DNA from: Escherichia phage CBA6
Sequence record: KM389297.1
Direction: 5' to 3' (one strand)
Length of the DNA stretch: 9,022 bases
Shown in pieces: positions 6,439 through 8,294 of this stretch. Positions within the stretch are counted from its first letter, which is position 1. Each line of letters starts with the position of its first letter. A model generated the notes under the pieces. That model was not told the DNA's origin. It saw nothing but the letters and a program-made list of their open reading frames with translations, and made no database searches. The position numbers and the translations under genes are program-made.

Positions 6439-6516
6439 TATTCACGTCAGTCCGCGCTATTCCAGCGTTCCGTTGTCTAACACAGAAGTGTTAACCAACT
6501 TTTCAATAAAAAGTGG

Positions 6517-6544
6517 TTTACATCTTCTAAAAAGGCAGTATATT
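6517..6544 (+). promoter_or_regulatory. Sigma70-like promoter candidate (-35 TTTACA, 16-nt spacer, -10 TATATT) for the 6612 gene
   Basis: TTTACA at 6517-6522; TATATT at 6539-6544. Contains the same AAAAGGCAGTATA motif (6530-6542) seen upstream of gene 32. Lies in a 173-bp intergenic region. Confidence 0.4.
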
Positions 6545-6611
6545 AATGTTCCAGACGCACAATTGAACATTAAACTGCCAAAGAAGGTTACTACACAAAA
6601 GGGTTTTTATT

Positions 6612-7571
6612 ATGTCCTATATTCTTCATATCGAGTCCGGCCTGAAATTTGAAATTGATGGTAAAACCGCTGCTGATCTTCAAGCAGAAATCAAAGGTGC
6701 AGACCTTATCATCGGCAACGTCACGTTACGCCGTATGATGGAAGGCGTCCTCCAGTCAGCCAACGGCTTTGAACTCATTGAAGGTCTGAGCCAGGAAGAG
6801 AAAGAAGAGACTCTCGAAGCTCTTGACCGCGCTGAAGCCGAAAAAGTTAAACCGACCGAAGATGCGGGGGTTAAACAGGGCGACGGTGAATCAAATCCGG
6901 TGATTGACGCCGAAGAAACGGTTGGGCAACCTGTCGGTGATCAAAATTCCCAGACCGTCGAAGACGGTTCTCTTGAAGTCAACAAAGACGGCTCCATTTC
7001 CCTGGTAGTTGAAGGCGAAGAAGTTCTTGACGAAGAAGCGCAAGCCCGTGCTGAAGAAGTTCGCCGTCGTATGCTGGGCACAACCGTTGCTGAAGCAATC
7101 GCCGACGTTGAAAATCCGAAGGATGATCAGGCTTTAGCGAACGCGAAGGCGGTTCTGGCCAAGAAATCTTCTGAAATGCGTCCTGCGTCTTCTACTGAAG
7201 AACGCAAGCGTCGTCATAACAAACGTGAAGAAATGGTTGAAGCCGCTCGTGCTTCTAACTATGGTCCAATCCTGGCGGCGGTTGAAGCAGGGGTTACTCC
7301 TGAAGTATATTTGAGTTATGTGAACCCTGATATGCGCTGGTTCCAGTTCCCTGTCACTGAATTGGCAGACGAAGCCAATCCGCATGCCCGCACTAACACC
7401 TATGTTGATCTGGCGCCTATCGTTTCCGGCGGCTGGGGTTTCAGTCTGTATGTGAATGGTAAGTCATTCACCAAGCGTCAGAAAATCAAAGAAACTGACG
7501 CTGAATCTCTGGTAAAGGCTATCAACGAATGGCTACCTCAGGCGTTGGCCGAAGCGAAAGCTGCTGCGTAA
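6612..7571 (+). CDS. Hypothetical protein (319 aa) with acidic low-complexity central region
   Basis: ATG 6612 with GGG-rich SD 8 nt upstream. N-terminal region (about 60 aa), then an E/D-rich segment (EEKEETLEALDRAEAEKVK...EGEEVLDEEAQARAEE), then a C-terminal domain (SNYGPILAAVEAGVTPEVYLSY...GGWGFSLYVNGKSF). Followed by a strong terminator. No family recognised. Confidence 0.6.
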   Translation: MSYILHIESGLKFEIDGKTAADLQAEIKGADLIIGNVTLRRMMEGVLQSANGFELIEGLSQEEKEETLEALDRAEAEKVKPTEDAGVKQGDGESNPVIDAEETVGQPVGDQNSQTVEDGSLEVNKDGSISLVVEGEEVLDEEAQARAEEVRRRMLGTTVAEAIADVENPKDDQALANAKAVLAKKSSEMRPASSTEERKRRHNKREEMVEAARASNYGPILAAVEAGVTPEVYLSYVNPDMRWFQFPVTELADEANPHARTNTYVDLAPIVSGGWGFSLYVNGKSFTKRQKIKETDAESLVKAINEWLPQALAEAKAAA

Positions 7572-7599
7572 TTTAACTCAGAAGCATTCAATAGATGAA

Positions 7600-7633
7600 G
7601 GGGCTGCTATAATAGCAGCTCCTTTTGTTTATT
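7600..7633 (+). terminator. Rho-independent terminator
   Basis: GGGGCTGCT-ATAAT-AGCAGCTCC: 9-bp stem with one G-U pair, then TTTTGTTTATT. Starts 29 nt after the stop at 7571. Confidence 0.75.
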
Positions 7634-7643
7634 GGAGCACACC

Positions 7644-7718
7644 ATGTCGTATTCGCTCAAAGGGTTGTTGAAGCGCCCCGTACATCTGTTTGCTGTCGAA
7701 GGGGAATATCCGGCATGA
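7644..7718 (+). other. 24-codon mini-ORF with strong RBS, ending at a TGA that is in frame with the downstream kinase
   Basis: GGAG (7634-7637) with 6-nt spacer to ATG 7644; translates MSYSLKGLLKRPVHLFAVEGEYPA then TGA at 7716-7718. The kinase ORF begins 6 nt later in the same frame. Confidence 0.3.
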
Positions 7719-7724
7719 GGAGAG

Positions 7725-8294
7725 TTGTATTACGTTAAAGGCTCCAACGGTAGCGGCAAGTCCACTGTCCCTTCCTATCTGGCGGAGAATGATCCTCAGG
7801 CGTATGTCGTGACCTACAATGGCAAGATCATGCTCACAGTTTGCCCTTCCTATAACATTATCTGTATTGGTAAATATGACAAGTCTAAGTCTAAAGGTGT
7901 TGATTCCCTGAAAGATACCGAGCAGATGTTGTTCGCCTTGTCCATTGCTGATCAGCCGGAATATCTGAAATATGACGTGTTGTTTGAAGGAATCATCCCT
8001 TCAACTTTGCTCAGCTCATGGATTCCCCGCCTGACGCGCCCACCGCGCGAATTAGTCGTGCTCTTCATGGACACCCCGCTTGAAACCTGTGTTTCCCGTG
8101 TGAAATCACGCAACGGCGGCGCAGACTTCAATGAAAGCCTGGTTGTCGAAAAGTGGGAGAGAGTTCATGACCACCGCCAACGGCATAAAGGCTTGTTCCC
8201 TACCGTTCCCGCAGGTATGATGAAGTCCAATGGCCTGACTATAGAGCAGGCTGTTTTTGCGTTTCTCAATCGTGATTTTGGGAGTATTGATTGA
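7725..8294 (+). CDS. P-loop nucleotide/nucleoside kinase-like protein (189 aa); substrate unknown
   Basis: Walker A GSNGSGKST at residues 6-14 after the beta-strand-like LYYVK. The only start codon in frame after the TGA is TTG 7725; GAGG at 7717-7720 gives a 4-nt spacer. Stop TGA 8292-8294 overlaps the ATG of the next gene. Confidence 0.65.
   Translation: MYYVKGSNGSGKSTVPSYLAENDPQAYVVTYNGKIMLTVCPSYNIICIGKYDKSKSKGVDSLKDTEQMLFALSIADQPEYLKYDVLFEGIIPSTLLSSWIPRLTRPPRELVVLFMDTPLETCVSRVKSRNGGADFNESLVVEKWERVHDHRQRHKGLFPTVPAGMMKSNGLTIEQAVFAFLNRDFGSID

Follow-up and report, generated by a model that had tools for sequence, protein, structure and literature searches.

What role is played by a gene that a whole phage family has retained and that is still carried in its genomes as a hypothetical protein? 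This question is raised by a 319-amino acid (aa) open reading frame (ORF) in a 9,022-bp stretch of Escherichia phage CBA6 (KM389297.1), referred to here as the window. Few core genes shared across the Ackermannviridae, phages widely used in biocontrol and therapy, lack a function, and this gene is one of them. Its expression appears to resemble that of gp32, the single-stranded DNA-binding protein (SSB) gene of the same window. The product is tentatively read as an early adaptor or tether that is abundant, is not part of the virion, and acts in the DNA-metabolism programme. It is probably an abundant, soluble, non-virion, acidic protein of 35 kDa.

The window is a segment of a Kuttervirus (ViI-like, Ackermannviridae). 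Over its full length it is 98.9% identical to Escherichia phage ECML-4 and Salmonella phage Vi01. The 319-aa ORF is intact and begins with ATG, and this start codon is supported by the N-terminus, MSYILH, which is invariant in the 25 homologues that were aligned. Orthologues include Vi01_062c, Marshall_145, PS5_17, Sajous1 gp29, and LIMEstone1 ORF047, each annotated as a hypothetical protein and each fully syntenic with the CBA6 gene. The protein matches PHROG 3905 from end to end (E 3.2e-175, residues 1-319 against profile positions 1-312 of 312) and is 99% identical to the cluster that holds the Escherichia phage EP75 protein. When 1.84 billion representatives were searched exhaustively with a profile, no more than 35 clusters at 50% identity emerged; the family is thus small and lineage-restricted. 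Those clusters that were tested match PHROG 3905 only.

Searches with tblastn, in which distant members such as P0128 served as queries, returned at least 350 phage records, nearly all of them from Ackermannviridae or close kin. The range covers Kuttervirus, Taipeivirus, Limestonevirus, Agtrevirus, several genera of Vibrio phages (207E48.1, VPALA, VP-1, YC, and GR28A), and Aeromonas phage phiA8-29. The ORF thus distributed is a genuine core gene of the Ackermannviridae that is present in all ViI-like phages. It is not new as an entity, because it is already in GenBank (as a hypothetical protein in more than 200 phage records) and in PHROG 3905, and its promoter and terminator have already been annotated in LIMEstone1. 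No mention of Vi01_062c was found in the literature.

The gene can be described as a transcription unit of its own. The two best sigma70-like sites of the window are 6517-6544 (TTTACA-16-TATATT), upstream of this gene, and 2472-2499, upstream of gp32; both score 10/12. Each carries an exact copy of the 13-mer AAAAGGCAGTATA (6530-6542 and 2485-2497), which occurs twice in the window. None of 200 shuffles gave three or more matches at up to two mismatches. In the whole 157-kb Vi01 genome, exact copies are found only upstream of ssb and of the orthologous gene. The 13-mer is not in itself a conserved regulatory word, because the ssb and ORF047 promoters of LIMEstone1 differ at its position. It is specific to Kuttervirus and reflects two closely related promoters. 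On the downstream side, the terminator hairpin (7597-7625) has a predicted energy of -22.7 kcal/mol (z = -4.6), and none of 200 shuffles folds as well. Of 200 shuffles of the leader and start region, 199 are more structured than the native sequence (z = +2.0).

This layout recurs in relatives. In the LIMEstone1 record the orthologue is preceded by an annotated "putative early promoter" and followed by a terminator, and the Marshall record also has a terminator at this position. A promoter-like site lies upstream of the orthologue in LIMEstone1, Vibrio 207E48.1, VPALA, and phiA8-29. A hairpin followed by a T-run stands directly 3' of the orthologue in all six Ackermannviridae lineages examined, VP-1 and YC included. 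The initial annotation had proposed a dedicated sigma70-like promoter with a motif shared with gp32, a strong terminator, and an independent transcription unit. The promoter and its motif are present, the terminator is strong by the measures above, and the independence of the unit is borne out by distant Ackermannviridae and by the LIMEstone1 annotation. Together these features support a putative insulated, strongly expressed, early monocistronic unit. High expression is suggested by the strong promoter and terminator, by the unstructured leader, and by an apparent carry-over of the protein into a CsCl-purified virion preparation that is discussed below. The timing of expression is presumably early.

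The promoter belongs to a small, phage-specific class that can be recognized elsewhere in Vi01. GTTTAC is the -35 consensus of T4 early promoters. In Vi01 the class reads TTCAATAAA..GTTTAC(T/A)TCTTC(A/T)A(T/A)AA..TATAnT and has five strict members (187c, 146c, 121c, 095c, and 062c) on one strand. Its sites lie on the minus strand of NC_015296 near 144205, 99225, 80597, 63974, and 39993. A variant near 58200, upstream of Vi01_089c, is a sixth site. The five genes under this class are small and have no assigned functions. The element TTCAATAAA also lies upstream of the -35 hexamer in Vi01_146c, Vi01_095c, and LIMEstone1 ORF047, and 187c has the near-match TTGAATAAA. This class may be the early-promoter consensus that the authors of the CBA120 study could not find. 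A sequence in Pseudomonas phage M6 (L016 9360-9385), CTTTACTTCTTC, is similar to the -35 element and spacer of the Vi01 early promoters and lies upstream of ORF049; the resemblance is probably a coincidence.

The architecture of the protein was delimited with the alignment of 25 homologues and an AlphaFold2 (AF2) model. Residues 1-75 and about 190-319 are conserved and the acidic middle is variable. By the predicted local distance difference test (pLDDT), the model is confident for residues 1-60 (about 88) and 205-319 (about 90), and its values fall below 50 for 79-140. The segment 79-141 has a net charge of -14. Across 132 family members the inter-domain linker ranges from 57 to 286 aa and is net acidic in every one (-0.11 to -0.26 per residue); selection preserves its acidic composition rather than its sequence. 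The linker is followed by a basic helix, ERKRRHxKREEMV, in which the 25 sequences show no variation at R198, K199, R200, R201, H202, K204, and R205; R200 is also invariant in a deep alignment of 30 sequences. Two conserved domains split by an acidic region, as had first been proposed, are thus confirmed by the alignment, the model, and the linker survey. In Enterobacter phage EspM4VN the orthologue is apparently split into two ORFs (BFVD A0A4P2WVB7, 112 aa, and A0A4P2WVS1, 222 aa). This split is probably due to a frameshift or a sequencing error in the low-complexity linker.

No characterized relative was found. A Pfam search gave no family at E <= 0.1, including CesT, YbjN, and gp32. There was no match in a PDB sequence search and no significant match for the model in Foldseek against PDB, and BFVD yielded only uncharacterized Ackermannviridae orthologues. 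The earlier statement that no T4 family can be assigned agrees with these searches and with PHROG. The C-terminal domain can be likened to class I type III secretion chaperones (AvrPphF ORF1, SicP, Spa15, SycN, and VecA), whose fold has the order alpha-beta-beta-beta-alpha-beta-beta-alpha. It can also be likened to YbjN/AmyR-type proteins, to the Fbxo7/PI31 FP dimerisation domain, and to PsiB. Identity to this group is about 8%. These folds are protein-binding or dimerising alpha+beta sandwiches. The likeness is taken as a lead and not as membership, because there is no Pfam signature and Foldseek is silent.

Several other identities were considered and set aside. The gp32/SSB family profile, PF08804, matches the true gp32 gene (2571-3608) and not this protein, for which there was no match to an oligonucleotide/oligosaccharide-binding fold. 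The rigid, B-DNA-like acidic surface of DNA-mimic anti-restriction proteins of the Ocr, ArdA, and Arn type was not found. The sigma-binding N-terminal domain and "double-wing" DNA-binding C-terminal domain of T4 MotA were not found either. The protein is not taken as an analogue of gp59 or UvsY, since Vi01 has genes for both at other places (Vi01_038c and Vi01_139c).

The N-terminal module is used more than once. A second Vi01 protein, Vi01_089c (162 aa, PHROG 3764), was picked up with a profile built from the N-terminus. In an hhalign comparison of PHROG 3905 and 3764, the match extends over the whole 58-residue module (probability 84%, E 7.5e-6), and the AF2 model of Vi01_089c has the same strand-strand-helix-helix-strand order. 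The C-terminal sheets of the two proteins may also be related (profile comparison probability 52%). Vi01_089c (NC_015296 57669-58157, minus strand) lies just downstream of the primase gene and is itself a promoter-gene-terminator unit with an early-type promoter. Unlike the 319-aa protein, it has neither the long acidic linker nor the basic helix, and it adjoins the primase gene rather than the nucleotide-metabolism module.

A third architecture joins the module through a low-complexity linker to DUF3489, a Pfam domain of unknown function. It is found in gp207 of Delftia phage PhiW-14 (L015 4539-5216) and in metagenomic proteins (the set is P0145, P0147, P0148, and P0150-P0153). DUF3489 takes the place of the chaperone-like domain in these fusions, and the metagenomic linkers are Lys/Ala/Pro-rich whereas that of the 319-aa protein is acidic. 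The neighbours of gp207 are clamp, clamp-loader, RegA, and MazG genes, a T4-like replication cluster. The three architectures align without gaps in the core of the module. The module is mobile between architectures, as its fusion to DUF3489 in PhiW-14 and metagenomic proteins shows. Its reuse in three architectures, as judged from sequence comparison, is a new finding. The architecture of the protein and the reuse of its N-terminal module can be regarded as mildly interesting leads. The dissection into domains also provides experimental handles, namely, a portable N-terminal module, an acidic tether selected for composition, a chaperone-like C-terminal domain, and a short paralog.

A search of 5.8 billion proteins with the profile of the N-terminal module revealed no further relatives, and the combined profile of the module found no solved structure. 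The profile of the short paralog gave a weak match to the insertion domain of ribosomal P0/uL10 (E 0.07-0.4). This match was taken as chance because it was lost with the combined profile and had no Pfam support. M6 ORF049, which is similar to gp207 according to the PhiW-14 record, has a C-terminal region that is DUF3489-like by eye and an N-terminus that is unlike the module. It heads the thymidine-hypermodification cluster of M6. A single IMG/VR contig could be recovered for the gene surroundings of the DUF3489 fusions, and it was uninformative.

Conservation and gene order place the protein among genes of DNA metabolism. Between Vi01 and LIMEstone1, the N-terminal module is 72% identical, the C-terminal domain 82%, and the linker 30%. 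For comparison, gp32 is 75% identical, UvsX 68%, the ThyA-like protein 76%, and the 5-hydroxymethyldeoxyuridine (5-hmdU) DNA kinase (HMUDK) 85%; the adjacent 243-aa ORF reaches only 33%. Conservation of the folded domains equals that of core replication enzymes, which points to a putative constrained core function and not to an arms-race gene. The gene stands at the 5' end of a module in the order (HMUDK)-ThyA-like hydroxymethylase-deoxynucleoside monophosphate kinase-dUTPase-...-UvsX-gp41 helicase. This synteny is seen in seven lineages, Kuttervirus, Limestonevirus, Vibrio 207E48.1, VPALA, phiA8-29, YC, and VP-1. In YC the gene downstream of the orthologue is ThyA-like, and in VP-1 a 202-aa ORF is followed by UvsX. 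Because the kinase gene is not adjacent in either phage, the gene is considered to be linked to the module as a whole and not to the kinase.

The adaptor mechanism can be inferred from these observations. A strong sigma70 promoter of the T4-early-like type would drive early transcription of the gene as an insulated unit of its own. The protein would be a flexible, probably dimeric adaptor in DNA replication, recombination, and nucleotide metabolism. Its chaperone-like domain and the adjacent basic helix could hold one partner, while the 60-aa N-terminal module, carried on a long, acidic, disordered tether, could dock onto a second partner or a hub. A number of points weigh against this proposal. 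The link to DNA metabolism comes from gene neighbourhood only, and a strong terminator stands between the gene and its downstream neighbours. The ViI thymidine hypermodification pathway has been reconstituted in vitro without the protein (PMC8989533). Sajous1 gp29 was represented by 10 spectra in CsCl-purified virions (PMC10892097, Table 6). No Ackermannviridae transcriptome or infected-cell proteome was found in the literature.

A rather unlikely alternative is that the protein is a decoy for host takeover or anti-defence. The disordered region of this abundant, early, acidic protein would mimic nucleic acid and sequester a host DNA-binding protein (a nucleoid protein, a restriction or other nuclease, RecBCD, or RNA polymerase), and the folded domains would give specificity. 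The early-type promoter and one-gene "cassette" layout are consistent with such a role, as are the isoelectric point (pI) of 4.6 and the linker, which has an identity of 30% yet keeps a net negative charge throughout. The other Vi01 genes of the promoter class are small and without assigned functions, as is typical for early takeover genes. It also speaks for this reading that ViI-like phages do not possess Alt, ModA, MotA, or AsiA (PMC3184105); early regulation and host takeover in these phages are the context in which the gene matters. However, the rate at which the folded domains evolve is as low as that of replication enzymes, and the synteny is fixed across Vibrio, Aeromonas, and Enterobacteriaceae hosts, whereas anti-defence genes are usually patchy and fast-evolving. 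In addition, the acidity lies in a disordered segment and not on a rigid, DNA-shaped surface as in Ocr and ArdA.

The adaptor reading can be extended to a broader and improbable scheme. Among T4-like phages whose thymidine is hypermodified (Ackermannviridae and PhiW-14), the N-terminal module could serve as a portable docking domain of a kind not described before. It would deliver a chaperone-like domain, the small beta domain of the short paralog, or DUF3489 to one hub of the replication factory. In such a scheme the 319-aa protein, as abundant as gp32, would be an acidic scaffold for replication, recombination, and post-replicative modification.

It is highly unlikely that the protein is packaged in the head and injected, like T4 Alt or the internal proteins. 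Packaged proteins are often acidic and partly disordered, and this speaks for such a role. So do the Sajous1 spectra, since the 10 for gp29 exceed those for the prohead core protein (2) and the scaffold (4) in the same study (PMC10892097). However, the preparation also held clear non-virion proteins, RegB (31 spectra), a ParB-like protein (11), gp32 (5), and glutaredoxin (4), and its authors warn of contamination (PMC10892097). The supplementary files of that paper hold no details on gp29. The orthologue ORF047 is absent from the 39 virion proteins identified by mass spectrometry in LIMEstone1 (PMC3296691). The comparison with virion proteomes that the initial annotation called for is therefore divided, with gp29 present in one contaminated preparation and ORF047 missing from the other list.

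The promoter is of the early type, and there is no T4-type late promoter (TATAAATA) at the gene. The sole copy in the window (4615-4622, minus strand) precedes the gp54-like tail-tube initiator gene by about 35 nt, which fits late expression of that gene. The 319-aa gene is outside every structural module; the head module of Vi01, with its own gp22 scaffold and gp21 protease genes, is at 102-104 kb. When the N-terminus was read from the sequence, no (L/I)xE protease motif was found at the expected place. A scaffold or internal protein (gp22, IPI-III, or Alt) was rejected, as there is no sequence or fold match in Pfam, PHROG, PDB, or BFVD, and the context, promoter type, and proteomics disagree with it. 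The initial annotation had named a match of the C-terminal domain to such a family, in matching genomic context, as what would refute it; no such match was found, and relatives place the gene in the replication and nucleotide-metabolism module, not in the head module. A virion role is thus unlikely, and the simplest reading of the Sajous1 spectra is the carry-over of an abundant, soluble early protein.

An accessory scaffold that recruits the 5-hmdU DNA kinase and later enzymes to new DNA for post-replicative thymidine hypermodification is also very doubtful: the N-terminal module is shared with PhiW-14, another phage with hypermodified thymidine, but this explanation is weakened because the in vitro pathway works without the protein (PMC8989533) and the kinase gene is not adjacent in YC and VP-1, and moreover a strong terminator separates the two genes and in this window the kinase gene has a nonsense codon while the 319-aa ORF is intact.

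The kinase gene of the window shows some peculiarities. Its reading frame, orthologous to the verified ViI gp67, is broken by a CGA to TGA change at codon 25 (7716-7718), and there is an in-frame deletion of 12 bp (TGTAAAACCACC) after 7692. In the best 12 of 258 related phage records, 841 nt correspond to the 829 nt of the query, so that these records do not have the deletion. Vi01, Sajous1, and Marshall, which were aligned directly, have neither change. A 189-aa ORF that restarts at TTG 7725 keeps the P-loop, and the second ViI kinase, gp243, could compensate for the broken gene. The Vi01 orthologue, Vi01_061c, is misannotated as "terminase small subunit" in RefSeq and PHROG 800, and the PS5 orthologue as "baseplate hub". 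Its identity as a 5-hmdU DNA kinase is shown by Pfam PF18748 (E 9e-107) and PMC8989533. The true small terminase of Vi01 is Vi01_162c.

An RNA feature was also noted at gp32. Its predicted leader (2506-2570, plus strand) contains a GC hairpin, GCCCGAAGGGGC, at about 2541-2552, just upstream of the ribosome-binding site and without a match in Rfam. By analogy, this hairpin might be a translational operator like that of T4 gene 32. Rfam revealed no known RNA family in the window. The features of the window are collected in Table 1.

Table 1. Features of the 9,022-bp window, with the parts of the 319-aa gene and its putative control elements.
Feature	Position	Strand	Remarks
RuvC-like resolvase, small membrane protein, FmdB-like protein, gp33, 79-aa ORF			Gene order at the start of the window
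gp32 (ssb) promoter	2472-2499	+	Comparator; TTAACT-16-TATAAT; 13-mer AAAAGGCAGTATA at 2485-2497
gp32 SSB	2571-3608		After the 79-aa ORF; Pfam PF08804, E 6e-66
gp54-like tail-tube initiator gene		-	Between gp32 and gp2
gp2 DNA end protector	4635-5339		
Two hypothetical ORFs			243 aa, then 95 aa; between gp2 and the 319-aa ORF
UP-like element TTCAATAAA	6502-6510	+	A/T-rich; common to the promoter class; putative function
Sigma70-type, T4-early-like promoter	6516-6544	+	Predicted; -35 GTTTACA 6516-6522, 16-nt spacer, -10 TATATT 6539-6544
5' leader	6551-6611	+	Predicted, about 61 nt; start of transcription placed from the -10 element
Shine-Dalgarno-like AAAGGG	6597-6603	+	8 nt before the ATG
319-aa coding sequence	6612-7571	+	34.8 kDa, pI 4.6; PHROG 3905
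N-terminal alpha/beta module	6612-6791	+	aa 1-60; strand-strand-helix-helix-strand (AF2)
Acidic helix, disordered acidic linker, two low-confidence helices	6792-7181	+	aa 61-190
Conserved basic helix ERKRRHNKREEMVEAAR	7182-7259	+	aa 191-216
C-terminal alpha+beta domain	7260-7568	+	aa 217-319; helix, four strands, long helix
Rho-independent terminator	7597-7635	+	13-bp stem, 3-nt loop, T-run; hairpin 7597-7625
5-hmdU DNA kinase gene	7644-8294	+	Directly after the 319-aa ORF

The putative adaptor can be compared with known systems. Unlike type III secretion chaperones, its C-terminal domain belongs to a multidomain phage protein of 319 aa and has no secretion-system context. A parallel in organization is a transcription unit of the T4 gp32 type. 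Both units have a strong promoter, the same word near the -10 element, and a terminator, and both encode products of about 34-35 kDa, that of the gene described here being acidic. They differ in that the acidic region of gp32 is a C-terminal tail, whereas that of the 319-aa protein is internal.

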